Positions 4,893 to 46,579 of a DNA stretch of 64,000 nucleotides are shown piece after piece. Numbering within the stretch: the first letter of the stretch is position 1; each line of letters begins with the position of its first letter. The position numbers and the translations under genes were made by a program. Below the pieces are notes generated by a model. The model saw only the letters and a program-made list of their open reading frames with translations, searched no databases and was not told where the DNA came from. The DNA comes from a virus. The stretch is taken from IMG/VR virus record IMGVR_UViG_3300045918_000214, positions 4,896 through 68,895 of that record. The stretch is one strand, 5' to 3'.

Positions 4893-5560
4893 AACTTCTT
4901 TTCCTTATCGGTTAGTTTTATTAGTTCTTTCATCCACTTGACTGATGGTTCTATGAATACCTCGATGTTCGCACCACCTTCGACTACCATTAGAATAACC
5001 AGATCACTTATTCTAATTCCATATCTTTCAAACACCATGCATGCATAAGCCGCGCACTGTAGGAAATAAGCATTGATGTCTTCTTTGTACTTCAGACGAG
5101 ATGAAGTTTTAAAGTCAACGATTGCCAATTTTCCATCATATTCGGCTATGCAATCTACTGTCCCTGCCAAACCTATCATCTTTGAGTACATTTGGTGTTC
5201 TAGCACAAAGACATTATCTACATGCTCTTCCAAATGCTTTTTCATGGTAAGAAAATCTTGTTTGTAAAACATAGAGATGTCAGACCATTCCCTATTTAGG
5301 AGGAGGTTCTCACAAGCAAGGTGAATTGCAGTCCCACGAGTAGCGGCAGCTTTAGTAATCCTATCTGCTTCCTTGTGTCCTACAGCTTCTCTCCAAGCAG
5401 CAATGCTTTCTTTCCCGGTGCTAAATTGACCCACGAAGGAAGTAACTGATCTGTACTTATTTCCTTCTGGGTCAAAATAATATCTAATAGGCCCAGAATC
5501 ATCTCGCACGAGTTCAAAATTCTGGGGTTTCACATTTTCATAACGAATAAAGTTTTTCAT
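4889..5560 (-). CDS. PD-(D/E)XK (Cas4-like) exonuclease common in T4-like phages
   Basis: SVTS, RGTAIH, GTVDC...IVDFKTS, YFLQCAAYA. Confidence 0.8.
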   Translation of the reverse strand: MKNFIRYENVKPQNFELVRDDSGPIRYYFDPEGNKYRSVTSFVGQFSTGKESIAAWREAVGHKEADRITKAAATRGTAIHLACENLLLNREWSDISMFYKQDFLTMKKHLEEHVDNVFVLEHQMYSKMIGLAGTVDCIAEYDGKLAIVDFKTSSRLKYKEDINAYFLQCAAYACMVFERYGIRISDLVILMVVEGGANIEVFIEPSVKWMKELIKLTDKEKKL

Positions 5561-20228: not shown

Positions 20229-20310
20229 GGCATATTTAATGGTGGTAATGGTGAGAATCAAACTCACTTTGGGCACCGTATGAAGGTGGTGCATTATCCT
20301 AATGCTACAT

Positions 20311-20413
20311 TACCATATCTAAATACACTAGAGGAATCGAACCTCACCCGGTGCATGCTGTTCCGGTAGCTCCAAGCGTCGTTGATCAAACGATAGTGTA
20401 TTTAGATATGGTA
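20311..20413 (-). ncRNA. tRNA-like RNA closed by a 20-bp inverted repeat
   Basis: TACCATATCTAAATACACTA/TAGTGTATTTAGATATGGTA enclosing a GAGG-TTCGATT-CCTC T-arm. Confidence 0.55.
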
Positions 20414-20482
20414 GGGCTCCACGGTACTGCCCCGTGTTCTTCTGATTAAAAGTCAGATATTTCACTTTAAAATTTGAACCCC
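20409..20482 (-). tRNA. tRNA-Lys(UUU)
   Basis: TCTGA-CTTTTAA-TCAGA anticodon arm, CCA; atypical T-loop GGCAGTA. Confidence 0.75.
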
Positions 20483-20487
20483 GTTGA

Positions 20488-20562
20488 TGGTCCTCTGCCA
20501 CGGTAACGATCCGTGTTCTTCCGGGTAAGAGCCGGGAGCTTCACCATTAAAGCTTGCAGAAG
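20488..20562 (-). tRNA. tRNA-Lys(CUU)
   Basis: CCGG-CTCTTAC-CCGG, CCA. Confidence 0.75.
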
Positions 20563-20646
20563 AGATTGTGTATAAAAATTTCTTTTACGTGCAACCACAA
20601 ACCATACAACGGGGTTCATGATTACACTAGCGTTTGCCAGTGTGTT

Positions 20647-20832
20647 TCATATAGTTTCTGTACTTTCTTTGATGTCAATATTTGCGAAGTATTCTTGTTT
20701 AAGATTTCCTCCACCTACTTTACTTAATCCTTCGATAGGATTCTTTTTGTGGCCGAAGCCGTTAACTTTTTGTCGTTTGCACATTAAGCAACCTGCACGT
20801 GCATTCTTTGGTTTACCGCGTTTGTGGTTCAT
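20647..20832 (-). CDS. small basic hypothetical protein inside the tRNA island
   Basis: NHKRGKPKNARAGCLMCK. Confidence 0.5.
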   Translation of the reverse strand: MNHKRGKPKNARAGCLMCKRQKVNGFGHKKNPIEGLSKVGGGNLKQEYFANIDIKESTETI

Positions 20833-20840
20833 ATGTAATC

Positions 20841-21134
20841 CTAATGTACTAAAGCTGCCTTGAGAATTGCAATTTGCTTCCGTAGTTCTGCATTAATTTC
20901 TCGTTCCTCTTGGAGGTCATGCTGACATTGAAATGATTCATCTTTCCAAGTCTCAGTGACCGTATTCAGTAATCCTATCTGTGAATCGGAGATGGTGTCC
21001 TTCTCTTCAAGGTATTCTAATTGGTCTGCTAATTGAAGTAACAACAGAGTCATTTTGACGAGAAATTTTTCGTCAATCACTTCTGTGTTAATAATCTCCT
21101 TAGCGGTCTTTTTTAGATATTTTACGGTGATCAT
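20841..21134 (-). CDS. hypothetical coiled-coil protein
   Basis: Open frame in an inter-tRNA gap behind a TAAATA motif. Confidence 0.5.
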   Translation of the reverse strand: MITVKYLKKTAKEIINTEVIDEKFLVKMTLLLLQLADQLEYLEEKDTISDSQIGLLNTVTETWKDESFQCQHDLQEEREINAELRKQIAILKAALVH

Positions 21135-21164
21135 ATTCAACTTTTTGTTGAATATTTAATGTTT

Positions 21165-21239
21165 TGGTGCCTATTGTAGGAATCGGACCTACGATCTCTC
21201 GCATACCAAGCGAGCGCAATACCACTATGCAAAATAGGC
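21165..21239 (-). tRNA. tRNA-Thr(GGU)
   Basis: CTCGC-TTGGTAT-GCGAG, CCA. Confidence 0.85.
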
Positions 21240-21244
21240 TAAAA

Positions 21245-21319
21245 TGGAGGGCCGTGAGGGAATCGAACCCCCGTCTAATGCTTCGAAGGCAATAATTCTG
21301 TCCGTTGAAATAACGGCCC
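21245..21319 (-). tRNA. tRNA-Arg(UCG)
   Basis: TGC-CTTCGAA-GCA, TTCGA T-loop, CCA. Confidence 0.8.
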
Positions 21320-21324
21320 ATGTT

Positions 21325-21399
21325 TGGTACCCGAGGAGAATTTTGAAATCTCGACCTTCGCAGTGTAAGTGCGTTGCTCTACCTCTGAGCTACCCGGGC
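21325..21399 (-). tRNA. tRNA-Val(UAC)
   Basis: CGCA-CTTACAC-TGCG, CCA. Confidence 0.85.
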
Positions 21400-21404
21400 A
21401 TATT

Positions 21405-21478
21405 TGGTACATCGTGAAAGAATCGAACTTTCGTACTCGCCAAGTCAAAGCGGTATTCTACCATTGAACTAACGATGC
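21405..21478 (-). tRNA. tRNA-Val(GAC)
   Basis: CGCT-TTGACTT-GGCG, CCA. Confidence 0.75.
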
Positions 21479-21484
21479 ATAATT

Positions 21485-21562
21485 TGGTGCGGATGGTGAG
21501 ACTCGAACTCACAGAACTACTCCTTTTGAGAGAGCCGGCTTTACCAATTTGCCCACATCCGC
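21485..21562 (-). tRNA. tRNA-Leu(CAA), short variable arm
   Basis: GCTCT-CTCAAAA-GGAGT, CCA. Confidence 0.8.
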
Positions 21563-21686
21563 ATAAATGTATTGAATGAGCAAGATTACGAGGAGTGGAC
21601 CCTGCCCTTATAGTCGTCGTTCAAGCATTTTATCTCCACAACAATGCAAGACACACCGGCCACTATCGAGGCTCTCATTCAAATCT

Positions 21687-21761
21687 TGGTACCCCTGAGT
21701 GGAATCGGACCACTGTCTCTGGCTTCGCAAACCAGTATACTTTCCATTGTACTACAGGGAT
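21687..21761 (-). tRNA. tRNA-Arg(GCG)
   Basis: CTGGT-TTGCGAA-GCCAG, CCA. Confidence 0.75.
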
Positions 21762-21767
21762 AAATTT

Positions 21768-21844
21768 TGGTGCGGATGGTGGGACTCGAACCCACAGCTT
21801 ACGGCTTCTAAGACCGCTGCGTTTACCAATTTCGCCACATCCGC
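21768..21844 (-). tRNA. tRNA-Leu(UAG), short variable arm
   Basis: GCGGT-CTTAGAA-GCCGT, CCA. Confidence 0.85.
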
Positions 21845-21850
21845 GTTAAA

Positions 21851-21942
21851 ACAATTTAGGGGTGACCTGAGGGTACCGCCCCCTCTTAACTAAGTTCACA
21901 GCCTAGGTCATTACTTTTATGATAAGGCCACACCTAAATTGT
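21851..21942 (-). tRNA. tRNA-His(GUG) inside an extended terminal stem, no encoded CCA
   Basis: CTAGG-CTGTGAA-CTTAG; flanks ACAATTTAGG/CCTAAATTGT pair. Confidence 0.65.
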
Positions 21943-21948
21943 CTTTAG

Positions 21949-22023
21949 TGGCAGGGATACTAGGATTTGAACCTAGACTGACGGTTTTGGAGACCGCGAT
22001 GCTGCCAATTACACTATATCCCT
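21949..22023 (-). tRNA. tRNA-Trp(CCA)
   Basis: GCGGT-CTCCAAA-ACCGT, CCA. Confidence 0.9.
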
Positions 22024-22032
22024 GTAAATCCA

Positions 22033-22185
22033 TTAAGCTGCCATTTTAGCAGCAATTTTCTTTCGCTGTTTGGTTGCCTTCAAACCCAATTTGTCCAACT
22101 GGGCCAATTGGTCCGTTGGTGACAACTTTGCCCACGCTGTATTACGAGCCACGGCCTCTGAATGCTTCACACTTCTATCTTTCAT
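22033..22185 (-). CDS. 50-aa hypothetical protein (MKDRSVKHSEAVARNTAWAKLSPTDQLAQLD...)
   Basis: Manually translated; GGAG upstream. Confidence 0.55.
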   Translation of the reverse strand: MKDRSVKHSEAVARNTAWAKLSPTDQLAQLDKLGLKATKQRKKIAAKMAA

Positions 22186-22220
22186 TTGGAGTACTCCATC
22201 TAGTTAAAAATCAATAATAT

Positions 22221-22295
22221 TGGCACCCCGTGAAGGAATCGAACCTTCTAACCGTGATTCAAAGTCACGTATGCATGCCATTGCATATACGAGGA
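22221..22295 (-). tRNA. tRNA-Gln(UUG)
   Basis: CGTGA-CTTTGAA-TCACG, CCA. Confidence 0.8.
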
Positions 22296-22305
22296 GTATG
22301 TATAA

Positions 22306-22425
22306 CAGGGTCACTTTAATTGGCGGCTGCTCTACCAACTGAGCTACGTAAAAGGTTTCACACTAATACGGTGAGACTCGAACTCACGACAGGCTGCTTG
22401 GATTTAAGTATGCTGAACTGACCCT
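22306..22425 (-). ncRNA. YrlA-like Y RNA with permuted tRNA domain (unit 4)
   Basis: AGGGTCA-GTTCAGCA...TGACCCTG stem enclosing a T-arm (GTGAG-TTCGAGT-CTCAC) placed before a D-arm (GCTC-AGTTGGTA-GAGC). Confidence 0.8.
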
Positions 22426-22433
22426 AAAGATAA

Positions 22434-22494
22434 CAGGATAATTTTTACGGTTTTGATTAAAAGTCAAATGTATTTGTTTTGCTGAACTTATCCT
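22434..22494 (-). ncRNA. Y-RNA-like unit 5
   Basis: AGGATAA-GTTCAGCA...TTATCCTG; internal TTTGA-CTTTTAA-TCAAA. Confidence 0.65.
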
Positions 22495-22500
22495 AAATTT

Positions 22501-22590
22501 TGGCGGAGAATCAGGGAGTCGAACCCTGTAAGCTACTTTCGTAACTTTACTGATTAGCAATCAGCTGCATTACCGTCCTGCCCATTCTCC
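22501..22590 (-). tRNA. tRNA-Ser(GCU)
   Basis: GCTGA-TTGCTAA-TCAGT, long V-arm, GCCA. Confidence 0.9.
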
Positions 22591-22594
22591 ATTC

Positions 22595-23158
22595 TTACTG
22601 TAACCGAGCACGTGAGTGCTTAGGTAGATGTGCTGTAAGAAATTCCATCTGATCTGCAAGAATATTTCTATTTGCAAGAATCAGAGCTTCTGCACGGTCA
22701 GGAATGTATGGAGCATATAGCAACGTAAGTCCTGCCTTTTCTACCGACTTGTCATCTTTATAGTTATTGCAAGGCTTGCAAGCAGTAACCACATTCATCC
22801 AAGTATTCGGACCACCTTTGGAAACAGGAACAATGTGATCCCGTGTAGCATCATGATCTCTCACGTGCGAACCACAGTAACAACAAATATGTCTGTCTCG
22901 ACCAAATAGATTTCTATTGGTCAGTGGGACTGATCTATTCTTTGTACGACCAAGTGAGCGAATAGCTACAATTGATGGCACAGACACAGTTGATTGTTCA
23001 CCGGTCAGTCTTGAATTTCCACCACGGTAAATGGTTTCGTCACCAAGAGACCAAGCAATCAAATCTTTAACTTTGTAACAAACTCCTTCTTCCCAAGTGG
23101 ACCAGCGTTGTGGAATTCCAGCTGAGTCAAGAGTCAATACTAATGGATGATTTCTCAC
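22595..23158 (-). CDS. HNH endonuclease (McrA-like)
   Basis: RDRHICCYCG...TRDHIVPVSKGG..W.NVVTACKPCN..K. Confidence 0.9.
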   Translation of the reverse strand: MRNHPLVLTLDSAGIPQRWSTWEEGVCYKVKDLIAWSLGDETIYRGGNSRLTGEQSTVSVPSIVAIRSLGRTKNRSVPLTNRNLFGRDRHICCYCGSHVRDHDATRDHIVPVSKGGPNTWMNVVTACKPCNNYKDDKSVEKAGLTLLYAPYIPDRAEALILANRNILADQMEFLTAHLPKHSRARLQ

Positions 23159-23187
23159 AATGCCCGTCCTTTCTATAATTAAGTTTG

Positions 23188-23279
23188 TTTAGTGTGACAG
23201 GATTTTCACCTGCAAACCCTCCTAGCACAAGCTTTACAGCTTATCCGCCGGCATTCTAAATGTTGAACTACACACTAAA
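23188..23279 (-). ncRNA. degenerate tRNA-like element
   Basis: TTTAGTGTG/CACACTAAA stem with D-like and T-like arms but no clean anticodon arm. Confidence 0.4.
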
Positions 23280-23282
23280 ATT

Positions 23283-23355
23283 TGGTTGCGTACCCCTGAA
23301 TTGAACAGGTCCTGAGGGTTATGAGCCCACCGTGCTACCATCACACTCGGCCGCG
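23283..23355 (-). tRNA. tRNA-Met(CAU), initiator-like
   Basis: GGG-CTCATAA-CCC, C1:A72 mismatch, CCA. Confidence 0.75.
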
Positions 23356-23580
23356 ATATTCATCTGCTTACGATTATGCAGAGTATGTGTCGATACTAGA
23401 GGTACTCAGTGGAGTACTTAGTCCATACCGATTTATTCATCCGCTTACTTGATACGGAACTTAGTTTTTTGAAGGCCAAGTAGTGTAATAACGCCTACAA
23501 CTTACGGATGTTAATCGGACGCCTGAGTAGCCAACAAAGCTACTCTACCGGTGACGTCAAACGGTCCTAAGGGGATCCTT

Positions 23581-23665
23581 TGGTGCAGCTGGTCGGAATC
23601 GAACCGACACGGATTTCTCCACTAGCTTCTTAGACTAGCGTGGCTACCAATTACACCACAGCTGC
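23581..23665 (-). tRNA. tRNA-Leu(AAG)
   Basis: CTAGT-CTAAGAA-GCTAG, long V-arm, CCA. Confidence 0.85.
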
Positions 23666-23670
23666 AATAC

Positions 23671-23767
23671 CCAATTCAAAACACACTGCCAAGAACTCCT
23701 GAGCGGTTAACCTCAGTCCTAATGTTCACACAAGAAACCACTAATGTGGGAATGTGTTTTGAATTGG
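23671..23767 (-). ncRNA. long-stem small RNA (family with 27653-27765)
   Basis: 15-bp IR CCAATTCAAAACACA/TGTGTTTTGAATTGG. Confidence 0.5.
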
Positions 23768-23839
23768 TGCCCCAGGACGGAATCGAACCGCCACACCCTG
23801 CTTACAAAACAGGACCTCTACCACTAAGGATACAAGGGC
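23765..23839 (-). tRNA. tRNA-Thr(UGU)
   Basis: CCTGT-TTTGTAA-GCAGG, CCA. Confidence 0.85.
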
Positions 23840-23845
23840 TAAAAT

Positions 23846-23920
23846 TGGTATGAGCACCCGGTTACGCTCCGGGATCTTCTGTTTGGCAAACAGATACACG
23901 AACTACTGTGCTATGCCCAT
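23846..23920 (-). tRNA. tRNA-Gly(GCC)
   Basis: TCTGT-TTGCCAA-ACAGA, CCA; atypical T-loop and A73. Confidence 0.7.
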
Positions 23921-23957
23921 GTTGTTCTTATTTTTATTCTTTAATCTAAACTACTAG

Positions 23958-24032
23958 TGGTCCGCCGTGAGGGAATCGAACCCCCGTTCGGACGTTAGAA
24001 GTGTCCTGTATTTTCCACTATACGAACGGCAG
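23958..24032 (-). tRNA. tRNA-Arg(UCU)
   Basis: GGACA-CTTCTAA-CGTCC, CCA. Confidence 0.8.
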
Positions 24033-24041
24033 ATAATATCA

Positions 24042-24122
24042 CAGGATCGTTCTCTACTTTTTGATTTAAGTCAGAACATCGAAACTGACAGCCAAATGTA
24101 TTTGGTTTGCTGTAACGATCCT
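24042..24122 (-). ncRNA. Y-RNA-like unit 6
   Basis: AGGATCGTT-ACAGCA...AACGATCCTG; shares CAAATACATTTG with unit 5. Confidence 0.65.
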
Positions 24123-24127
24123 AAAAC

Positions 24128-24201
24128 TGGTCTCGGTAGTAGGAATCGAACCTACGCTCCTTGGTCCCAAACCAAGAGTGATACCATTTCACCACACCGA
24201 G
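24128..24201 (-). tRNA. tRNA-Pro(UGG)
   Basis: CTTGG-TTTGGGA-CCAAG, CCA. Confidence 0.9.
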
Positions 24202-24217
24202 TATAATCTATTTATTC

Positions 24218-24291
24218 TGGAACACCTACTCAGAATCGAACTGAGTTCAACGGGTTTGCAATCCGCTGCCTATCCAACGGGCTCTAGGTGC
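24218..24291 (-). tRNA. tRNA-Cys(GCA)
   Basis: GCGG(A)-TTGCAAA-(C)CCGT, U73-CCA. Confidence 0.85.
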
Positions 24292-24390
24292 ATATATTAG
24301 TAAGCAGGCTGAAATAGAATGGTGCGGATTCGAACCGCCTGTTAGTTCCCAGGACATTCCATGCCCGTTTCAGTCAGGCCCTGCTTAATT

Positions 24391-24482
24391 TGGCGGAGAG
24401 CAGAGGAGTCGAACCCCATCCTATTTCTAAGAACCTGGTTTTCAAGGCCAGTCGCAGGACCATCCCCGCTGCATTACTCTCC
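24391..24482 (-). tRNA. tRNA-Ser(UGA)
   Basis: CTGG(C)-CTTGAAA-(A)CCAG, long V-arm, GCCA. Confidence 0.9.
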
Positions 24483-24489
24483 ATATCTT

Positions 24490-24568
24490 TGGTGGGGTGT
24501 CTAGGAATCGAACCTAGTTCTACTGCTCTTCAGGCAGTCGCTGAAATGACCACACTAGCTCACACCCC
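24490..24568 (-). tRNA. tRNA-Phe(GAA)
   Basis: ACTGC-CTGAAGA-GCAGT, CCA. Confidence 0.85.
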
Positions 24569-24571
24569 GAA

Positions 24572-25030
24572 ATTTAGCCCACCGCTTCGTTAGGACTCTT
24601 ACCCCAGTTTTTCTCAAATGCTACCCACATACGCTAAACGATATGGACACCTGACGCAGTATATCACTGCAAAGAGCACCGCGTAGGGATGATGCTCTAC
24701 TGTTTACTTTGTGGCTCTTGCTTTCCACTTGATTCAATTCATACCGACCTGGAGGATTTATACCCCCGTCTTTTCTAGACCCACGTCAGCTGTGGATGAC
24801 GATTTTCTTCTTGCAAGAAACTTGCTTTGTAAAATTCATCATGCTTCTGTTTCTTGGTTTGCATGGGACCTCAGAATCGTTAGATTAAGATTCGAGCCTT
24901 CGGCTTAGATTCTTGGAATGTCTAGGGTATAGATCATCCCGTTGTTTCACTTTCCCACAAACCTTTCGGCCAATTTGTCTTTCGAGAAATTGTTAAGTTG
25001 AAACTTTGTAGAGAGCGACTCTACCATTCT
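24572..25030 (-). ncRNA. candidate large structured ncRNA (~460 nt)
   Basis: No credible ORF or tRNA; many hairpins including GNRA-capped ones (GCC-GAAA-GGT, TTCTT-GCAA-GAAGAA). Confidence 0.45.
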
Positions 25031-25032
25031 GC

Positions 25033-25106
25033 TGGTGCCCACGTAAGGAATCGGACCTTCGTCTAACGATTATCAGTCGTTTGCTCTACCATTGAGCTAC
25101 ATGGGC
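25033..25106 (-). tRNA. tRNA-Ile(GAU)
   Basis: AACGA-CTGATAA-TCGTT, CCA. Confidence 0.9.
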
Positions 25107-25164
25107 AAATTAATTGAAGTCCTGCTTGCCGTTGTGGTGCAGGGAACCATGGCGTCTTCAAATC

Positions 25165-25240
25165 TTGGAGTCGCATAGGGGTTACGATCCCCTCTACTCA
25201 GCTTGAAAGGCTGATGACCTCACCAGAAGTCCAATGCGAC
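25165..25240 (-). tRNA. tRNA-Glu(UUC)
   Basis: TCAGC-CTTTCAA-GCTGA, CCA. Confidence 0.8.
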
Positions 25241-25251
25241 ATTAAAATGAC

Positions 25252-25342
25252 TTCCCAGACAGGAATCGAACCTGTGTTATCCGGATCACATCATCCGTGA
25301 CCACTCCATCGGCATCCGCGCGGATGATGCCTACACTGGGAA
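25252..25342 (-). ncRNA. tRNA-like RNA with normal acceptor/T arms but replaced D and anticodon arms
   Basis: TTCCCAG/CTGGGAA acceptor, ACAGG-TTCGATT-CCTGT T-arm. Confidence 0.5.
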
Positions 25343-25354
25343 ATAAAATTGGGC

Positions 25355-25452
25355 ACAATGCTAAGCTGACCATCTAGGAATCGAACCTAGCTTATTCTCC
25401 GTTAACAGCGGAGCGCCTACACCATGTTTGCTTATGGTCAGCTTAGCATTGT
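25355..25452 (-). tRNA. tRNA-Asn(GUU) with 18-bp extended acceptor stem, no encoded CCA
   Basis: CTCCG-CTGTTAA-CGGAG; ACAATGCTAAGCTGACCA/TGGTCAGCTTAGCATTGT. Confidence 0.75.
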
Positions 25453-25458
25453 AAAACT

Positions 25459-25543
25459 TGGTGGATGATGATGGTAACGATCCATCAGAGCTTAAAGCGC
25501 CGGGTTTACAATCCGGACCGTCTCCTTAACGGTATAATCATCC
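25459..25543 (-). tRNA. tRNA-Tyr(GUA)
   Basis: CCGG(A)-TTGTAAA-(C)CCGG, long V-arm, CCA. Confidence 0.8.
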
Positions 25544-25894
25544 AAAATCTAGGAGGAATACACGGCGTTATTATAACCACGTTAAAGGGTTAATATAACT
25601 TCTGTCCTCGGCAGGTTTGCCGCTGTTGTTTGCCCTCGACTCCCTACTGGACCGACTTTGCTCATCATTCGTCATGTAGTCGTTTCGCTATGAAGCTATA
25701 CTCTATGTGCTACATGAAGACCGGAAACTCTGTTCCGGCTCGGTTTCCATCTACTCTACTACTAACTAACAACTTAGTATCTATCATTCTAAAGCATATA
25801 TGTCGCCACAAAGCTATGACATAATTGTTCTGCAAGCTTAATATCGCAGAGTCGCTTTATGCTTTAGAATGACACCCTATTTCTAGGGTCATTC

Positions 25895-25998
25895 TGTCTA
25901 CTAAATTGTTAATGAACTTTCAAGTGTAACTCTATCATTTCACTTGGTATGGATTTATTATAACATACACATCAATATGTGTAAATTATTTCTTCATT
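25895..25998 (-). promoter_or_regulatory. sigma70 promoter + hairpin + boxA-like leader (type B, copy 1; repeat of 28235-28338)
   Basis: TTTACA-17-TATAAT (25985-25957), CAAGTG/CACTTG hairpin, GTTCATTAACAATTT. Confidence 0.7.
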
Positions 25999-26133
25999 GT
26001 CTGCTAGGTAAGTTAATGAGAAATTTCCCTTACCCTGTTACTCTGTATCAGACTAATTCCACGCCAACAACTTTCATTAGATGGGGTATCTTAGCATCAA
26101 CCTACGGCTCTCTGTGTTCGAGCAGACAATAAA

Positions 26134-26211
26134 TTTTTAAAGAACCTATCCAACAGAAGCGATGTTTTGTTGGTATGGATTTATTATAACATACACATCA
26201 ATATGTGTAAA
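26134..26211 (-). promoter_or_regulatory. sigma70 promoter + hairpin + boxA-like leader (type A, copy 1; repeat of 28554-28631)
   Basis: TTTACA-17-TATAAT (26211-26183), CCAACA/TGTTGG hairpin, GGTTCTTTAAAAA. Confidence 0.7.
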
Positions 26212-26216
26212 TTATT

Positions 26217-26291
26217 TGGCAGTCCCAAGGGGTAACGATCCCCTTCTTCAACAGTGACAGTGTTGTGTGCGTCCATGAACACTTTGAGACT
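26217..26291 (-). tRNA. tRNA-Asp(GUC)
   Basis: CAACA-CTGTCAC-TGTTG, GCCA. Confidence 0.8.
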
Positions 26292-26298
26292 AAATTTT

Positions 26299-26375
26299 TG
26301 GTGTCCCTGATCGGACTCGAACCGACAGATTATGGATTTTAAGTCCACTGCCTAGACCAATTTGGCTACAGGGAC
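26299..26375 (-). tRNA. tRNA-Leu(UAA), short variable arm
   Basis: TGGA-CTTAAAA-TCCA, CCA. Confidence 0.85.
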
Positions 26376-27020
26376 TTTTAATTTTCTACCTTTAGACCAA
26401 CCATCAGGTATAAAGTCTGTTTTCTTTATTTTCTTATTTTCTTTCCCATTCGTAATCCACATAGATCCAAATTGAGAATTTTTATTCCCGGATTGTTTTT
26501 CTTTCATATGATCTGACATAAACTTTATAAATTCCGGTGTATGAGATTTACCAAGAAAAGAAGTTCTACCAGAATCAATGAAATTTTTATTAGTTCCATT
26601 TTTGAGTATGTTCGCCTGACCACCAAGTGATGAAACAACTTTCTGATAATCATCACCATATTTTTCACATAATACTTCATTGGTTCTTACTCTGCCCAAT
26701 TTTGTTCTTTCTAGATGGAGATCAGAACTATCATTAAGATAATCAAACCCACCCAAACCACCTCTTCTGAGGTTGTAAGTATCTTCTCTACTCAAAAATT
26801 CTTCATTTACAATTTGAAATTCACGGGCAAACATCTCTTCTTGAGACTCAAATGTCTCAAGAATAGTTTTGGTAAAATTTTCAATCCCATGCTTTTTGAT
26901 TGCCCGAGTAATAATTTTACCAGAACCCATATAGCCATCATCTAACTTTTTAGTTTTATGAACACCTATATAGATTTTACCATTGATATTGTTTCTAATT
27001 TCGTATAAGTAATAGTGCAT
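26352..27020 (-). mobile_element. free-standing GIY-YIG (Seg-like) homing endonuclease
   Basis: YYLYEI.N.INGKIYIGVH...YMGSG...YNL..GG; NUMOD-like C-terminus; AT-rich. Confidence 0.85.
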
Positions 27021-27053
27021 TTGTATCTCCTATTACTATTTAGTGAAAGCATG

Positions 27054-27128
27054 AGCGGGATAGGAGATTCGAACTCCTACTTTCAGCTTGGAAGGCTATC
27101 GTGCTAAACCGTTGAACACCAATCCCGC
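27054..27128 (-). tRNA. tRNA-Gly(UCC), CCA not encoded
   Basis: TAGC-CTTCCAA-GCTG, TTCGAAT T-loop. Confidence 0.85.
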
Positions 27129-27215
27129 ATAAAACAAAAGAAAGTCCGTTACTTACCAAGGAAAGGTTCTACCTGTTACTTCCTTATAGCATTTTCGCCT
27201 CGACAACTTTCAAAC

Positions 27216-27289
27216 TGGTCAGGGTACTAGGAATCGAACCTAGGCTTCAAGCTTCCAAAACTCGTAGACTACCATTATCTCATACCCTG
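27216..27289 (-). tRNA. tRNA-Pro(UGG), second copy with A37
   Basis: CGAGT-TTTGGAA-GCTTG, CCA. Confidence 0.75.
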
Positions 27290-27374
27290 TAAATTCATGA
27301 AAGTTCCGATAACACCCATCGTCACTTACAACCGTTGTGAAACCATGCATCAAAACAAGATTTCTATTTGCTCT

Positions 27375-27450
27375 TGGTGGAGCTGTGGGGTAACGATCCC
27401 CAATCTTCGCATTGCAAGTGCGACGTGTAGCCCTCTATCACTACAACCCC
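27375..27450 (-). tRNA. tRNA-Ala(UGC)
   Basis: TCGCA-CTTGCAA-TGCGA, CCA. Confidence 0.85.
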
Positions 27451-27473
27451 AAAATATTCTTAAAGTTGATGTC

Positions 27474-27550
27474 TGGAATTATGATACTAGGAATTGAACC
27501 TAGTCACCCGGGCGTTCAACCCGGTATGCATCCGTTACATCTTATCAAAT
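27474..27550 (-). tRNA. atypical tRNA (GAA anticodon, bulged acceptor stem), possibly pseudo-tRNA
   Basis: CCGGG-TTGAACG-CCCGG, CTAGG-TTCAATT-CCTAG, ends TTCCA. Confidence 0.45.
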
Positions 27551-28234: not shown

Positions 28235-28338
28235 TGTCTACTAAATTGTTAATGAACTTTCAAGTGTAACTCTATCATTTCACTTGGTAAGGAATAATTA
28301 TAACATAACTTTCATTATGTGTAAATTATTTCTTCATT
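28235..28338 (-). promoter_or_regulatory. sigma70 promoter + hairpin + boxA-like leader (type B, copy 2)
   Basis: ~55 nt identical to 25895-25949; TTTACA-17-TATAAT. Confidence 0.7.
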
Positions 28339-28553
28339 CGGTTGTTGTCAGGGAAATTTCTTACATTACGCTAATCACAGTCCTCGCGGATTCTGCGGTT
28401 CGTTACCTCACATCCAGCCTACACTAGAGTCTGGAATTGCTACCCTTCACTTGCGTGACGTCGGAACACCTAATTAGTTTCACCTCACTCTTTGGGACTT
28501 AATACCCAGAGCTACCATACTCACCTTAGAGTGAGTCAGAACCTAACAACAAC

Positions 28554-28631
28554 TTTTTAAAGAACCTATCCAACAGAAGCGATGTTTTGTTGGTATGGAA
28601 TGATTGTATCATACCACGGAATATGTGTAAA
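28554..28631 (-). promoter_or_regulatory. sigma70 promoter + hairpin + boxA-like leader (type A, copy 2)
   Basis: ~46 nt identical to 26134-26179; TTTACA-17-TACAAT. Confidence 0.7.
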
Positions 28632-28648
28632 TTATCTAAGAACCAACT

Positions 28649-28677
28649 AAAAAGGCCCTCTTTGTGGGAGGGCCTTT
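28649..28677 (-). terminator. intrinsic terminator / attenuator upstream of the tRNA island
   Basis: AAAGGCCCTC-CCACAAA-GAGGGCCTTTTT. Confidence 0.85.
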
Positions 28678-28703
28678 GGTGTTCCTAAACAATCAAAGTC
28701 CCT

Positions 28704-28808
28704 CTATGTGTGATCCCATTCTGGTGTGAACTGGACCGCACGTGCAGAATCGCATCCACCATTAATGGAGGCAGGATAATTCAACAGTGATAAGAGGTTA
28801 TGTTTCAT
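28704..28808 (-). CDS. putative attenuator leader peptide MKHNLLSLLNYPASINGGCDSARAVQFTPEWDHT
   Basis: 34 codons, all 20 amino acids, 31 distinct codons; stop overlaps the antiterminator arm; ATG 5 nt after TAAATA. Confidence 0.7.
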   Translation of the reverse strand: MKHNLLSLLNYPASINGGCDSARAVQFTPEWDHT

Positions 28809-29147
28809 ATATCTATTTAGTGCAGGTAGCTAACTTTTTCTCAACTATTTTCGTTTTTGTTCAATCTTTTTTTGCATCCGCATCGTCTACCCTGAGAGCA
28901 GTCTTGAGAACACTTAGAAGCAGGTAACTTGCTAATTGCTATACCAATTGCTACAACACCTATTAGGGCACAGATCAATGCTTGTATCATACTTTACTCT
29001 TGAGTCTACTTAGACGTCTATTGTGTTCTGCATGTTCTTCGGCAGAACGGTTCACAAAGAATGCAAAATCATAGAACATCGGTTGCCCGAGCCACAGATC
29101 CCAGTTTCCTGGATGTTCATTCTTGAATGCTTCAAAAAATTCTTTAC

Positions 29148-30757
29148 TCATAATAGGATATCTGGTATCGTCAAAGATTCTTGTTCTGCTATCTGTGCCG
29201 CTTCATTGTCCATAAAGTCCGTGAGACGAGGTACTATATCTACCCAGGCTTCTGTAAGAGTATGAGCTCTACCGCCATAAATTTTCGGTTGATGAATTTT
29301 ACCTGCGTTATACATTCGTCTTAGGGCAAATTTGTATACATCTTCGTGGTGGCCTGTGTCCCAGATCTTAGTAACACGATAGTAATGGTCCCAGATAAGT
29401 TTCCAATGTACATCAGCTCGAGGATCAAATTTTGAGTTGATGATCAGAGCTAAGACATCAGAGGACTTTACTTTCCCTTTGACTATGTCTACCATGCAGA
29501 ATCCGAGACGAAGACCGATCTTCATTTCAGAGTATCTCCGTGGATGTCGTCCCAGTTAATGGAATCACGCATTTCACCAATTTCTACGGCCTTGGCAAGT
29601 TTGTCTTCTTCGATGCCGTAGAAACTTAGTTCCCACATAATTGCTTCAATAGCTTCATGGAAGGTATATTCACGGTGAACATCAAGAATTGTCTTGAGTC
29701 CAGTTACTTCCATCCCACGTTGCCATTCTTCAACAATCTTGAATTTAGAATTCAGAACGATTGGCAGACCTAACAAAGTTTCAAGTGCCGAGAAGTCGAT
29801 GCCCCAGTTGATTCTCATGCCCTTTTTGTATAGGACATAAGTCTTTTCTTCATCTTCGTACTTATCTTCTTGAAGTTCAAATCCTTGGCCATCAAAGCAT
29901 GCACGAGATAGACCAGAGATTTCAGTCTTACCTGCATAGGTGAAAAGATCTGGAGCCCAATAGACTTGGAGGTATTCAATACCATCTTCGTGGTATTCTT
30001 GTTTCCAAACAATCTTTGATCGATCTACTTTCTTCCAAGCTGCCACATAATCTTTAATGAAGCAGTTGTCAAAAATCATATCGCAGATTTCTGGTTCCTT
30101 CGAGAGAAACAGGAAAACATCATCGAGAGTTACATCAGCTGTAAAAGCTACTGGTTTACCGCGCTTGTCCGTCCAAAGCAGATTCTCTGTGATGTCACGG
30201 GGAATATAATGTCCTTCGCCCTTTTCTTCATCATAAAACCACTCATTGTGAGTAAGTTTACCACCTTTGGAGAAAACCAAAGTCGGTGTAGATTCTGTTT
30301 CTTCCGCGTCTCGGTTAATCCCGAGTTGTTCAAAAATGTCCATTATTTCTTCCATCTTTTAGTATTTGGCTTCGAACAGTAGTAAAATGGCCGTGGCTGA
30401 GTTACTACCGTCGTGGTCCATTGTGTAGGTGCCGGTGGAACATAGTAATAGTCTGGTATTTGTAACGGTACATAATCTGTACCAGATCTAGTAAACCAAT
30501 TTCTAATTCCCATCACAAAATCCCACAATTACTTTTAATTTCCAACAAGTAAACGAGTGAATCTTCAGACCATCGACCGTCTCCGTTGTATGGATAGAAA
30601 ACCACAGAGTTTGTAGTTTATCATCCACAAGTTGAGACCAGTGGTCATTTGCCCAAATCCATTCACCCATCAGCTTACCGATTTTGAATTCATGATTCTT
30701 ATTTGTACACGGCTTCAAATCGTAATGCTTCCGAAGTTCATCTTTTATAAGAATCAC
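29148..30757 (-). other. run of hypothetical ORFs (29148-29525, 29522-30355, 30343-30528, 30503-30757)
   Basis: Tightly overlapping minus-strand ORFs, no recognised family. Confidence 0.6.
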
Positions 30758-31809
30758 TTTTGTTTCTCCAGATATTTATTGGACACTGCCTTGAAGCTAA
30801 TTCTCCTAGAAGAGTTGGCTTTAAAAACCAAACCTTCACGCAGACATCCCATCATACCTAGCACGGATTGTCCATCTGCCTTGTCCAACAGACTTTGGCA
30901 AGTTTGATCCACCAACTTTGCTTCTGTTTCCAACACTGGAGCATCAGTCAGACCAAGTGCCTTAGTGATTTCTCTCCGAAAATACGGAGAAAAGTAAGTA
31001 AAGTTGTCGATGTCAAAAATATCAAACACAAAGAACATGTGCTTGGTCAAGTTGTAAATGTTGCCCTGAATTCCAGGACCACAAAGTTCACCTTGAATAG
31101 CAATGTTCAAACCCGTGATAATCAACTTTTCCTTCAAACCAAGTTCAAGAGCCATCTTCCAGAAGGTGTTATCTTCAGATTCTTTCAGATCCAAATTGCG
31201 AGATGCCACACCTACTTCACCATCGCGGATATACACAGTCATAGAAGAGCCTTCAGCCTTCTCAGTGACTTCCCATGTTTCATCTTCGAAGTGTTCTTCT
31301 ACATCGCGGAAGCAATTCTGCACACGTTCCTGGTCAGTCTTGATGATGAAAGATGGGAATGTCCCACGAGCATCAGCAGAGGTAAACTCAGGTGGTGCTT
31401 CCCACTTTACAATACCCAACAGTTCGGATACATCTTCACCTTCGGAGATAAATCCACCCATCGGTTTCCCAGCAATCTCAAGCATCGCATCAGTGATGGT
31501 AGAAAGTGGAAGCAACAGACCCTGAGACAATTGCTTGCGCAGACGGATCGTGCGAAGTTTTTCACCTTCGACACCATTGTACACCTTTGGAAAATGACCC
31601 GGCTTTGTCAAGAAAGGTGCAAGAGTACTCGGCATCCAGGAATCTGGTTCTGCATACACAACACGATCGCCAACTTGATACTTGCCAACTTGATCAACAA
31701 TCCACCAACCGTTCACACGGTAAGCACAGATCTTGTCTGCATCAGGGATAGACTTCACTTCGGCAATAGTTTGCACGGAAGCCATTTTGCGTACATAAAC
31801 TTCTGTCAT
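30754..31809 (-). CDS. ATP-dependent RNA ligase (DRB0094-like, N-terminal OB domain)
   Basis: I..IPDADKI, LRKQLSQGL, KTDQERVQN, TEKAEGSS (motif I variant), QGELCGPGIQGN, REGLVFK, SFKAVSNKYL. Confidence 0.85.
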   Translation of the reverse strand: MTEVYVRKMASVQTIAEVKSIPDADKICAYRVNGWWIVDQVGKYQVGDRVVYAEPDSWMPSTLAPFLTKPGHFPKVYNGVEGEKLRTIRLRKQLSQGLLLPLSTITDAMLEIAGKPMGGFISEGEDVSELLGIVKWEAPPEFTSADARGTFPSFIIKTDQERVQNCFRDVEEHFEDETWEVTEKAEGSSMTVYIRDGEVGVASRNLDLKESEDNTFWKMALELGLKEKLIITGLNIAIQGELCGPGIQGNIYNLTKHMFFVFDIFDIDNFTYFSPYFRREITKALGLTDAPVLETEAKLVDQTCQSLLDKADGQSVLGMMGCLREGLVFKANSSRRISFKAVSNKYLEKQK

Positions 31810-34209
31810 ATCATTCACTTTTGTTTCTGCTTTCAATTATATAAATCAAGTCGTTAAGTATCTCGGCCTTAGCTCTGCACTTATCATACCACTCAGATTC
31901 ACAATATGAACCTGGATTCTCGTAGGTTTCTACTTCCGAACGGAGCAGTTCTAAAATTTCTTCAACGGTAATCATAATCAATCTTCATCGTTAATTCTTG
32001 GATAACCCTTATACAGGCACGAGTTGATTTTGAATACAACTTCTGCCATCTTTTGATCTTTTACCGAATTGAAGTGGAAAGCATCCTTGACCAACTCATC
32101 ACGAAGTCGTACAAGATCTTCATAGATTTTTGGATTCTGTTCGTTCATTTCAATTTCCTAAAAATTTCTTGCACTTCCGGTGTGATGTTATCAATTTGAT
32201 CCATCACTTCTGCCGAAAGCATTGACAGAGCCACTTGAGCATCCGTCCAATCCTGTCCCTTCAGAGGTGCCATGTAATACTTTACTTCTTCTTGTGACTG
32301 CAACTGCCAAAGGCAATCTGCATGTTTAATCTGATTGTCGGTAAAACCGTGAACACGAACTGGTTCCATTTTAATTCTCTTTTCACTCATACAACATCAT
32401 TCTTAAAGTAACCGTAGGGAAGGTTGAAATCGTAACACAGGAATTCCCAGTCACCATTACATGTACTTGACTCCATAATCCAACGGAGTGCATCAGCACG
32501 GGTTTTGGCGCCAGAGGCAATGGTCATATCAACCAGACCCTCGAACTCGGCCTTGGCGTTCTTTTCATCTTCTTCACGTTGAGCCCATACGGCTTGTGCC
32601 TGGACATTCAAAGAGTCCAACATGGCTTCGATGTCTGCTTCCGTGCAGTTCGTAAAGTCAACCCAACGAGGACGAACGTTGTACACTTCTTTATAGAAGT
32701 CCCAATAGATGGACTGAAGTTCTTCGAGGCGTGTCATTACGTAGTCCATGATATTCCTTTGTGATTCGGTATGGGTCTATTATACAACACTCAGGAATAT
32801 GTGTAAATTAATTCATGATCCGATGGCCATTCTCATCGTAGAACTTGTCGCAAACCCAAAAGCCTTCTTGATCGTCAATTCCTGTGATCATAGCTTGTAG
32901 ACTGCTTCCCCGTGTAGATACCCAATGACCGCCGGGCTTCCCACATTCTTCACAAATGTGCTTTGAAAGCCGAATTGCTTTAGCCACAACACGGAGCGCT
33001 TCGGCATTCTTTCTATTGGAATCTCGTTGATTGCGATTCATTTTCTTACCTCAATGGTTGCCGTATACCGGTTGCTTTTTCTACCATGACAAATAGATCA
33101 ACATAACTTATTTTAAGTTGTGTTGCGAAATCATTCAGCATTTGATAGTCAATCTTAAATTCTTCAATCTTAGCTTTTGCCGCTTTGAGATCTTCAAGTA
33201 CAGCTTCGAAATGATCCACACAGTCTAGGTTTGCTTTCTTTACTGCTTCATTTTCTGCTTTTAATTCGGCTACTCGCCGATCTGCAAAATCTGTGTACAA
33301 ATCGAGTTCTCTACGATATGAATTCTTTGTTGCTACTTCGGAGTCGTAAAGATCTTTCCGGATGTAGTCAATGTACACGCCGTCATCAAGAAGTAGAGTA
33401 ACTTTACCGCGATAACCTTCTTTTGATGCTCCGCCTGAAATCATTTGCAGGCTGATTTCATCGTTACAAAAGCAAAAACTTTCCTCTGATGAAGGAGGTG
33501 ATGGAGAATCCGAAGTAACTTTAGTAATACTCATTTCTTGTATTCCTTATCAATTTCGTCAAGTATAGAATCCCACTGCCGAGTAAGCTCTGTGATGTGT
33601 GGCTGAATCATTGGCTGTGATTGCCCAATTACCATCATGAGCCGCACGACCAAACCTTCAAGTGCAGAGCACCGTTCTTCCCAATATGTTTCTGGTTTCA
33701 TACTTCAATTTCCTCGAGGGAGTCAAATACTCGTTGTTTAGCATTTGGATAAAGAGTTTCGTATTCCGAATCTGGTTCTCCAAGCATGTACAGAGAATTA
33801 TTGGTAGCAATCAGGCCGCGGCACTTACCGACAATTCTAGAGGTCTTTATAGTTTTACCATCTGGATTTATTCCAACTAGTGATTGTGTACGGAGTTCTG
33901 GGGCTAGATAAGCATCACCGTTGATAACAATGCCCCATTTGTCTATGAGTTTAACTTGTTTCATTTTAATGCCAAAAGTAATTTGCTTTTTCCCAAACGA
34001 CACATTGTGCTAAGAGTGTTTCAGCCCTCTTTTGTGCCTTCTTAAATGCGTCATCAATTAGATCATGACATCCGTGTGGCGATGTGTCTCGTGCCGCCAC
34101 ATAGTCGTATGAATCCGTGGCGATCCATCGAAGCCCAAACACACCTTTTTGTTGAACGTAGTATCGTCCCTGTAGTGGAGAATGTACGATCCGAACTTTT
34201 TTGAATAGA

Positions 34210-45533: not shown

Positions 45534-46091
45534 TTAGTTTGCACCGTGGTGGCCAACTTTTGGCTTCACAGTCTTCATGTGTTGTTTTACTTCATCCCAT
45601 GTCCATGGCATCATGTCCGCTGGGTTCCTATTGTCAATTCCTACATCCAGAATCTGACCTTCGGTCTTGAAAGATCCGTGACAGTGTCCGTGCAGGTGGA
45701 ATGATCGTTCTTCGTCTTCCCAATGAGCCAGAGGGAAGTGACACAGTACGACCGTTTGCTTTTCAATTGTGATAGTTCTCATTGTAGAAACGGAGGTACA
45801 CAGATCTTTCAGATCTTGATTCTTACGAATGTTGTGGTCGTGGTTGCCCAGAATCAGGTGATGTTCGACTCCGGTCGCTCGAATGCGGTTCAGAGCCTTC
45901 TCACAGAAACTCACACCCTGGAATGCTACGTCACCCAGATTGTACAGAACGTCACCTGGACGCAGAGTATTTTCTAGGTTGCTCAGGATGCGCTCGGACA
46001 TATCTTCCCAATCCGAACCGTGGCGAGTGGTGGGACAGAATTCTTGGATTCGTCGGTGGTAAATGTGCAGGTCAGATGTAAAGTAAATCAT
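45534..46091 (-). CDS. calcineurin-like metallophosphoesterase
   Basis: TSDLH, LGD, GNHD, HFP, HGHCH. Confidence 0.85.
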   Translation of the reverse strand: MIYFTSDLHIYHRRIQEFCPTTRHGSDWEDMSERILSNLENTLRPGDVLYNLGDVAFQGVSFCEKALNRIRATGVEHHLILGNHDHNIRKNQDLKDLCTSVSTMRTITIEKQTVVLCHFPLAHWEDEERSFHLHGHCHGSFKTEGQILDVGIDNRNPADMMPWTWDEVKQHMKTVKPKVGHHGAN

Positions 46092-46579
46092 TTTTCAGCA
46101 ATCATAATTTTGTAAAAGCCCTCATCTAGTGTAGGTACTTCATATGAGGCAATCATAGAATCCAAAACGTATTTTGGAATAGTTTTTCCTGGTCGTGAAG
46201 CCAGACGTTTTTGAAGTTCTTCGACTTCGGGTGTTTCAAAGAGCACGGCAATCACGCGATAACCGACCAAGTTCTTGATCTTGTTGGCACGAGACTTCTT
46301 GGACATGTTGGTTTGATCCCAGACAAAATCCTGCTCTGTGAACTGGAAGTGCATTACTTCGTCGATCATACGAGAGGTTGCTTCCTTGATGTTAGGCAAG
46401 AATGCATCGTTGTATGAAATGCCTTGTTCAGCAGCAAACTGGTCAATATACTTGTCAGTTGAGGCACAGCCGAGCTCTGGGTGGTTCTTAAGTACCCAAG
46501 TAGTTTTTCCAGCGCCAGGACAACCAATAAGCATATAGCAAATTGGTGGGTTTAGTTTCATGTTTTCAAAATCAGTCAT
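46088..46579 (-). CDS. AAA_33 / polynucleotide kinase-like P-loop kinase
   Basis: GCPGAGKTT, STD, DQTN...R, R...RPGK.IP. Confidence 0.8.
   Translation of the reverse strand: MTDFENMKLNPPICYMLIGCPGAGKTTWVLKNHPELGCASTDKYIDQFAAEQGISYNDAFLPNIKEATSRMIDEVMHFQFTEQDFVWDQTNMSKKSRANKIKNLVGYRVIAVLFETPEVEELQKRLASRPGKTIPKYVLDSMIASYEVPTLDEGFYKIMIAEK

Follow-up and report, generated by a model that had tools for sequence, protein, structure and literature searches.

A conserved module of about 170 nucleotides (nt), which lies on the minus strand upstream of the transfer RNA (tRNA) island of an uncultured phage, is best read as a ribosome-position-dependent attenuator in which a small open reading frame (mini-ORF) on a leaderless late transcript would set the fate of a downstream terminator. 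We put the probability of this reading at roughly 40%; a plain small late gene, followed by a terminator that ends a transcription unit, is nearly as likely. The DNA analysed, referred to below as the window, comprises 64,000 nt of the IMG/VR record IMGVR_UViG_3300045918_000214 (positions 4,896 to 68,895), a 68.9-kb record that is estimated to be 37% complete. The module is self-contained. It holds a late-promoter-like box, a mini-ORF under coding constraint, an intrinsic terminator and, next to the stop codon, a segment whose complementarity to the terminator is conserved, and the synteny of these elements is kept in related phages.

The late-promoter-like box, ACTAAATA, occupies positions 28814..28821, with its TAAATA core at 28819-28814. 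As noted in a preliminary description of this DNA, the core is followed by five nt (GATAT) and then by an ATG at 28808, which opens the mini-ORF of 34 codons plus TAG (28704..28808; TAG at 28706-28704). The box agrees at six of eight positions with the T4 late consensus. The window has 35 copies of TAAATA on its minus (coding) strand and 8 on the other, and 9 of the 35 minus-strand copies sit 0 to 60 nt ahead of ORF starts (2.8 expected), mostly at 15 to 29 nt. The other TAAATA boxes in the window are found 9 to 50 nt ahead of start codons, whereas the box of the mini-ORF is only 5 nt away; this spacing is kept in eight loci and amounts to 8 nt in one (L011). The T4 late promoter is described as an 8-bp TATA box placed about one helical turn ahead of the start site (PMC2988020). 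If the same holds here, a 5-nt gap between box and ATG means that a late transcript would begin at or beside the AUG. No Shine-Dalgarno sequence was found ahead of the mini-ORF: the predicted duplex with the anti-Shine-Dalgarno sequence has an energy of +0.4 kcal/mol, which is among the weakest 14% of 81 ORF starts. An in-frame stop lies eight codons 5' of the ATG, and there is no alternative start codon between the two. The spacing of the box and the missing Shine-Dalgarno sequence together indicate that the late transcript of the mini-ORF is probably leaderless.

The stop codon of the mini-ORF leads directly into the elements of a putative switch. Region 1 (GAGGGACTTTG, 28694..28704), whose first nucleotide is the G of the stop codon, is complementary to region 2 (CAAAGGCCCTC, 28678-28668), the 5' arm of the terminator hairpin. 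The two pair at 10 of 11 positions, just as had been reported before. Between them lies a spacer of 15 nt (28679..28693) that varies in length and sequence among loci and for which a small inner hairpin is predicted in every one of them. The intrinsic terminator (stem-loop at 28677-28651, T tract to 28649) has a GC-rich stem of 10 bp, a loop of 7 nt and five T; it was missed by a consensus terminator scanner because A-T pairs consume part of the T tract. Within the mini-ORF, codons 3 to 6 (region 0, CATAACCTCT, 28793..28802) may provide a further partner for region 1 and thus act as an anti-antiterminator. The complementarity of region 2 to the DNA before it is unusual. Its duplex with the upstream 80 nt reached -13.8 kcal/mol, a value matched by 2.2% of 5,000 shuffles (P = 0.022) and by 8 of 1,598 real 80-nt segments, 3 of which were this locus itself. 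The other three strong minus-strand terminators formed upstream duplexes of only -3.1 to -5.8 kcal/mol.

The module was found in eight further loci on eight contigs (L002, L004 and L011 to L016). L002, which lies in a complete 192-kb genome, and L004 are the two module carriers among four related contigs that were found via the RNA ligase (79 to 82% DNA identity), and they are hence free of peptide-word bias. The six others, L011 to L016, were picked up by scanning metagenomes for QFTPEWD or MK[QH]NLLSL, so that in each of them the search itself accounts in part for the conservation of one end. When 1.84 billion protein representatives were searched with a profile, one further variant, P0003, was obtained, and the mini-ORF proved to be almost never called by gene callers (two true members in the entire set); P0004 and P0005 from the same search were dropped as repetitive proteins that matched over 12 to 22 positions only. 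By exact look-up, two of the seven peptides were on record, each in an unnamed single-member cluster. These seven distinct peptides have 34, 35 or 36 residues, fall into about three lineages and differ by in-frame insertions and deletions, and the stop codon changes only from TAG to TAA.

The preliminary description had proposed to look for the module in relatives, and indeed these have kept the ORF in frame, along with the TAAATA box, the segment abutting the stop codon and the terminator. Mean pairwise identity among five lineages was 0.47 in the upstream intergenic DNA, 1.00 in TAAATA, the core being invariant, 0.92 in codons 1 to 8, 0.60 in the middle codons and 0.85 in the last codons with the stop. 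Beyond the stop codon, it was 0.94 in region 1, 0.51 in the spacer, 0.91 in region 2, 0.48 in the terminator loop and 0.92 in the 3' arm (region 3) with the T tract. The stop codon adjoins region 1 in every locus (0 to 1 nt), while the length of the spacer varies. L016 has a different upstream gene, yet the TAAATA core, the mini-ORF and the terminator are retained, together with the early promoter and the noncoding RNA (ncRNA) that follow; thus, the module starts at the late box and travels with the downstream DNA.

The ratio of nonsynonymous to synonymous change (dN/dS) was 0.02 to 0.52 for codons 2 to 8 and 26 to 34 and 0.13 to 0.73 in the middle of the mini-ORF, in all cases below 1, and synonymous differences at the ends of the peptide amounted to 0.19 to 0.63 per site. 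Between L011 and L015, for example, the ends have changed in a largely synonymous manner (sd = 6.0, nd = 1.0). Since the frame survives insertions and deletions and dN/dS is below 1, the mini-ORF is a real coding sequence and, on these evolutionary grounds, is translated. What the peptide is related to did not emerge from searches: scans of the peptide and of its small neighbours with PHROGs and Pfam gave no family for the peptide, a search of the ESM Atlas gave no usable lead, and tblastn against cultured phages returned chance matches only (E of at least 5).

The pairings were then compared in seven aligned loci, and growing transcripts were folded with ViennaRNA. The terminator helix was paired in 100% of 70 cells and showed two compensatory pairs, in which C-G is replaced by U-A in three loci and A-U by G-C in one. 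Regions 1 and 2 were paired in 97% of 69 cells; apart from one pair that is broken in two loci, the variation consists of two one-sided wobbles (G-C to G-U and U-A to U-G) that fall where region 2 has covaried with region 3, and wherever region 2 has changed, its base can still form a wobble or better. For regions 0 and 1, 98% of 62 cells were paired. In the predicted nascent folds, region 1 pairs with region 0 before region 2 is made and moves to region 2 as soon as the latter is available (-12.8 to -15.1 kcal/mol), in seven of seven loci. This agrees with the earlier proposal of two exclusive conformers, of which the antiterminator is predicted to form before the terminator in all seven loci. 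The predicted energy of the terminator, -15.6 to -19.2 kcal/mol, is slightly above the strength of the pairing between regions 1 and 2, and the full-length optimum in five of the seven loci is the terminator together with the pairing of regions 0 and 1. The data on regions 1 and 2 are therefore compatible with an antiterminator as modelled, with no support from covariation. Rfam gave sub-threshold matches only at the locus, to Trp_leader (RF00513; 22.0 versus 41 bits) and Phe_leader (RF01859; 18.6 versus 55 bits), and the resemblance to Trp_leader rests chiefly on the terminator.

What would be reached by read-through is a set of RNA genes with promoters of their own. A strong sigma70-type early promoter, TTTACA-17-TACAAT (28603..28631, minus strand), starts 18 nt past the T tract and is kept in all relatives, and a second sigma70-like early promoter lies 300 nt beyond the first (28325-28297, minus strand); promoters of this type had been anticipated here. 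The word AATTTACACATA marks promoters of the form TTTACA-17-TATAAT, of which it is the -35 region. At up to one mismatch, the window has 16 copies of it, all on the minus strand (0.88 expected), e.g., at 28622-28633, 28316-28327, 26202-26213 and 32798-32809, and the word is probably the early-promoter signature of the phage. Between the two promoters, a structured ncRNA of about 270 nt (28330..28596, minus strand) is 73 to 81% identical in all relatives. RNAalifold on five relatives predicted 66 pairs for it, 8 of them compensatory, with a long closing helix and GNRA-type loops; it matched no Rfam family at E values of up to 5. A partial second copy of the ncRNA promoter and the 5' part of the ncRNA is present in L002 (14028-14115).

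The tRNA island (20240-27549, minus strand) was said to lie directly downstream and to serve all 20 amino acids. In fact, its first tRNA is found at 27549, which is 1,100 nt past the T tract, with the two early promoters and the ncRNA in between, and the 29 tRNAs detected by ARAGORN have 27 distinct anticodons for 19 amino acids. A tRNA-His was found neither by ARAGORN nor by Rfam; Rfam added only a weak tRNA-like match with a CAU anticodon (23287-23354). Genes for homing endonucleases of the GIY-YIG (26352-27020) and HNH (22598-23158) types lie within the island. A late-type box, AATAAATA (24209-24216, minus strand), is located 7 to 8 nt ahead of a tRNA-Pro that starts at 24201, and some tRNAs may thus have late promoters of their own.

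In the mechanism that we favour, the late transcript would begin at or beside the start codon and its 34 to 36 codons would be translated. A ribosome that reaches the stop codon would cover region 1, the terminator would form and a short mRNA would result. If the ribosome were held more than about five codons ahead of the stop, region 1 would be free to capture region 2 once this is made; the terminator would then be blocked, and the polymerase could pass into the early-promoter region, the ncRNA and the tRNA island. On untranslated RNA, the pairing of regions 0 and 1 would restore termination, as in classical attenuators with four segments. The quantity sensed would be the general speed of elongation late in infection rather than one amino acid, and a leader rich in amino acids would broaden the range of causes that slow the ribosome. 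We infer the start site, leaderless translation, masking by the ribosome and the effect on tRNA output from the arrangement of the elements. Read-through could matter for late transcription only, and it would yield the ncRNA first.

A number of findings weigh against attenuation. The pairing of regions 1 and 2 has no compensatory change in seven loci, one of its pairs is broken in L011 and L015, and the pairing of regions 0 and 1 has no compensatory change either. Since the relatives are close (73 to 82% DNA identity), conserved complementarity cannot be separated from conservation for another cause. Of the antiterminator proposed earlier, the ORF, the complementarity and the terminator are kept in relatives, but covariation is absent. 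The early promoters that follow the terminator and the late boxes in the island mean that expression of the tRNAs needs no read-through; dependence on read-through, as expected of an attenuator, was not found. Moreover, the terminator also closes an upstream early unit; going upstream, the first early-promoter word is met at 32809. Purifying selection on the residues at the ends of the peptide suggests a role of the peptide itself, either in trans or, during termination, within the exit tunnel. Finally, no homologue of the module was found in Synechococcus phage BUCT-ZZ01, the nearest cultured relative, or in the more distant contig G002 (166 kb). The latter has 24 tRNA hits from position 1174 onward, and because the contig begins only about 1.2 kb before them, its lack of the module is uninformative.

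The main rival is an ordinary small late gene, of which the peptide would be the product. The terminator would close the upstream early unit, read-through would be unregulated, and the segment after the stop codon would be conserved for structure at the 3' end of the mRNA or between its ends, for stability or for control of its own translation. We hold this to be only slightly less likely than attenuation. The selection at the level of amino acids, strongest at both ends, is what a gene product should show, the terminator is placed where the early unit must end, just ahead of an early promoter, the antiterminator lacks covariation, and the tRNAs have separate promoters. A plain gene does not explain why a noncoding segment such as region 1 is nearly invariant beside a spacer with half-conserved sequence, or why it is complementary to a terminator arm when the three other strong terminators have no such partner. 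Nor does the combination of a 5-nt gap and a missing Shine-Dalgarno sequence look like a plain gene, and its peptide matches nothing in PHROGs, Pfam or cultured phages and found no lead in the Atlas. Even if the attenuator reading fails, a conserved and uncalled late gene of 34 to 36 amino acids (aa) with unusual expression signals remains.

The same elements could form a temporal switch, which we consider unlikely. Here, an early polycistronic RNA would leave the mini-ORF untranslated for want of a Shine-Dalgarno sequence, a leaderless late RNA would be translated, and the pairings of region 0 with 1, 1 with 2 and 2 with 3 would give early and late polymerases different efficiencies of termination. 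There is indeed neither a terminator nor a Shine-Dalgarno sequence between the stop of the upstream small ORF (28843-28841) and the ATG; a 151-nt contig of a relative from an RNA library (28779-28930) extends from the upstream ORF into the first part of the mini-ORF, although contigs cannot prove transcription; and the three-state progression of folding is predicted in seven of seven loci. The direction of the effect, however, is not derivable from sequence, and the pairings show no covariation. Very improbable is an untranslated late small RNA or another element that acts purely at the RNA level and has an open frame by accident. The missing Shine-Dalgarno sequence, the strong predicted RNA structure and the near-total absence of the ORF from gene calls would fit such an element, but the frame is kept in all five length variants with only TAG or TAA as the stop, and the differences at the ends of the peptide are mostly synonymous.

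The preliminary description had gone further and read the leader as a sensor of all tRNAs. Its counts are right: the 34 codons encode 20 kinds of amino acids and comprise 31 distinct codons, including four for Leu, three for Ser and three for Ala. The full set of 20 was present in 45 of 32,649 stop-free 34-codon segments in six frames (0.14%) and in 33 of 13,761 such segments within long ORFs (0.24%; 0.24 to 0.33% for 34 to 36 codons); when at least 31 distinct codons were required as well, 4 of the 32,649 six-frame segments and none of the 13,761 from long ORFs qualified. Such diversity is thus rare for a given ORF, but one such ORF per 64 kb is not extraordinary. Among the 839 ORFs of 20 to 60 aa that the window contains, 5 encode every amino acid, the mini-ORF being the shortest of them, and the property by itself is therefore a mild curiosity at most.

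The seven peptide variants gave a mixed picture. All 20 amino acids are found in six of them (window, L002, L004, L011, L012 and P0003; about three lineages), while the variant shared by L015, L016 and P0002 has no Val and Phe codons. His, Ile, Val and Tyr stand at nonhomologous positions in the window and L002. In this deepest comparison, the chance of finding all 20 in an L002-type peptide with the window-identical columns fixed is about 0.035; the chance that all 20 are retained from L002 to L011 is 0.2 to 0.33. These figures concern an example that was selected for having all 20 and variants that are few and related. The number of distinct codons given the peptide had P values of 0.07, 0.35, 0.61, 0.31, 0.008 and 0.29 in the six variants. 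Contrary to the expectation that codon diversity would be kept in relatives, it is no higher than the peptide predicts in five of six. The fit between leader codons and island anticodons, suggested earlier for Leu, did not stand out either: the island reads 26 of the 34 leader codons versus 82% of the codons in long ORFs, and by simple wobble rules no island tRNA reads the three Ser codons, the two His codons or the Lys codon. A codon run is absent; the longest stretch of one residue is 2 (LL), and 18 to 20 kinds are spread over 34 to 36 residues.

If the leader were selected to hold every amino acid, depletion of any tRNA, for example by host anticodon nucleases, would lead to read-through and resupply of tRNAs. 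This is improbable. The retention of all 20 in six of seven variants, the renewed supply of His, Ile, Val and Tyr from other positions, the low base rate and the nearby genes of the tRNA-repair type (RNA ligase; kinase/phosphoesterase) speak for it. On the other side stand the absence of Val and Phe from one variant, a codon diversity that is ordinary for the peptide, the unremarkable share of leader codons read by the island and the lack of a tRNA-His in an island whose leader has two His codons. Furthermore, a codon sampler needs no conserved order of residues at the ends, which is where dN/dS is 0.02 to 0.52. Of the earlier proposal, a translation-coupled conditional terminator remains a reasonable reading of the modelled structures, whereas the layer that senses all 20 amino acids is weak. 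We likewise think it unlikely that the attenuator exists in its fuller version, in which the leader would be kept rich in all amino acids and slow decoding of any of them, caused by starvation, host shut-down or tRNA-cleaving defence nucleases, would open late transcription into the ncRNA and the island of 29 genes. If true, the phage would possess a feedback loop in which translation capacity is gauged and answered with components of translation.

The window has the gene set of a T4-like phage: portal, prohead protease, scaffold, major capsid protein, gp32-type SSB, gp41-type helicase, primase, UvsY and RNR. The best match of the capsid protein is to the freshwater Synechococcus phage BUCT-ZZ01 (63% identity), followed by marine T4-like cyanophages (about 52%). 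Judged from these genes and from the searches for relatives, the phage is an uncultured, T4-like one, and the module was found in a small clade of such phages. A nucleotide search for the locus among cultured phages, in modes for close and for remote similarity, gave no match. In viral contigs, the neighbouring 277-aa protein found no relative, the exact terminator word was absent, and an ncRNA word found just the two contigs that were already known; the contig of L005 has no homologue of the module. BUCT-ZZ01 has an island with 30 tRNA hits. Upstream of it lies an annotated hypothetical ORF of 46 aa with 19 kinds of amino acids (L019, ON615601.1, 129384-129524, minus strand), then a terminator, and 6 nt identical to the 3' arm of that terminator adjoin the stop of this ORF. 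It was rejected as support for the module: hhalign gave E = 0.08 over 7 columns, BLASTP gave nothing, and the predicted global fold skips the pairing.

Directly upstream of the module in five of six lineages is an ORF of 49 aa (28841-28990, minus strand) that encodes one hydrophobic helix and a Cys-rich tail, the latter being, for example, G-C-x-G-x-C-N-Q-G...K-C-D-C-K in relatives; in L016, it is replaced by an unrelated ORF of 66 aa. An RNA ligase is encoded 2 kb upstream of the island (30754-31836, minus strand) and, farther upstream, a pair of a phosphoesterase and a kinase-like ATPase (45537-46579, minus strand). The ligase and the kinase/phosphoesterase form a set that is commonly tied to the repair of cleaved tRNAs.

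RNA libraries were also searched. About 6% of the sampled words were present in each of three metatranscriptome runs. At 80% likeness, six short contigs of relatives were found that fall on parts of the ncRNA region and on 28779-29069; they leave 28608-28778 uncovered and show neither transcript ends nor read-through. A 171-nt contig of a relative (run X1) joins 28408-28330 straight to 28602-28511, and the promoter and ncRNA modules are thus differently arranged, in tandem or permuted, in that relative.

To our knowledge, the regulation of phage tRNA islands is largely unaddressed, and a literature search gave no description of an attenuator with a leader peptide in front of tRNA genes in phages. 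The islands are seen as helpers in codon usage and as countermeasures to tRNA-cleaving defences in the reports considered (PMC10264068, PMC11464382, PMC11555353). An attenuator in this position is plausible, if unproven; its refinement into a sensor of all tRNAs is weak, and the module as such is conserved and nonrandom. If the attenuator is real, a known type of regulator would occur in a setting where it was not expected; at about 170 nt, the module is small and portable. Working as proposed, it would represent a viral case of ribosome-mediated attenuation that operates on a leaderless late mRNA and senses the general speed of translation.

The promoter part of the module resembles T4 late promoters in its conserved TAAATA core, the AT-rich stretch that follows, the strand bias, the enrichment before ORFs and the T4-like genes of the phage. 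Unlike the other late-type boxes in the window, it is only 5 nt from the ATG, which implies a leaderless mRNA if the start site is as we infer. The remainder is built like the attenuators of amino acid operons (trp, his, phe, leu, thr, ilv): a short ORF precedes an intrinsic terminator and a predicted antiterminator that would exclude it, a ribosome terminating at the stop codon would mask the 5' arm of this antiterminator, and a possible fourth segment within the ORF could pair with that arm. In contrast to these attenuators, the module has no regulatory codon run, is viral, lies behind a late-type promoter box with probably no 5' leader, and precedes a promoter, an ncRNA and tRNA genes rather than biosynthetic genes. 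Its peptide is conserved at both ends, and its Rfam scores are far under the cut-offs. In Sinorhizobium, the attenuator RNA rnTrpL and the leader peptide peTrpL are reported to act also in trans (PMC6614838, PMC7968998). They have no sequence relation to the module, but they offer a precedent for an attenuator whose short terminated RNA and peptide both have functions, by which selection on the amino acids of the peptide could be reconciled with a role in attenuation.

By analogy, the proposed function is closest to that of the translation-stress attenuators and upstream ORFs (uORFs) of the antibiotic response, such as vmlR of B. subtilis (PMC9226507), msrD of streptococci (PMC10314930) and the toiL uORF of E. 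coli (PMC12121999). As far as these elements are described in the reports cited, they respond to ribosome-targeting drugs and control bacterial resistance or toxin genes, whereas the module belongs to a phage, has RNA genes as its cargo and is known from its sequence alone. Like the module, they have a short ORF that lacks a specific codon run, and in them stalling of the ribosome leads to read-through, so that trouble with translation in general is sensed.

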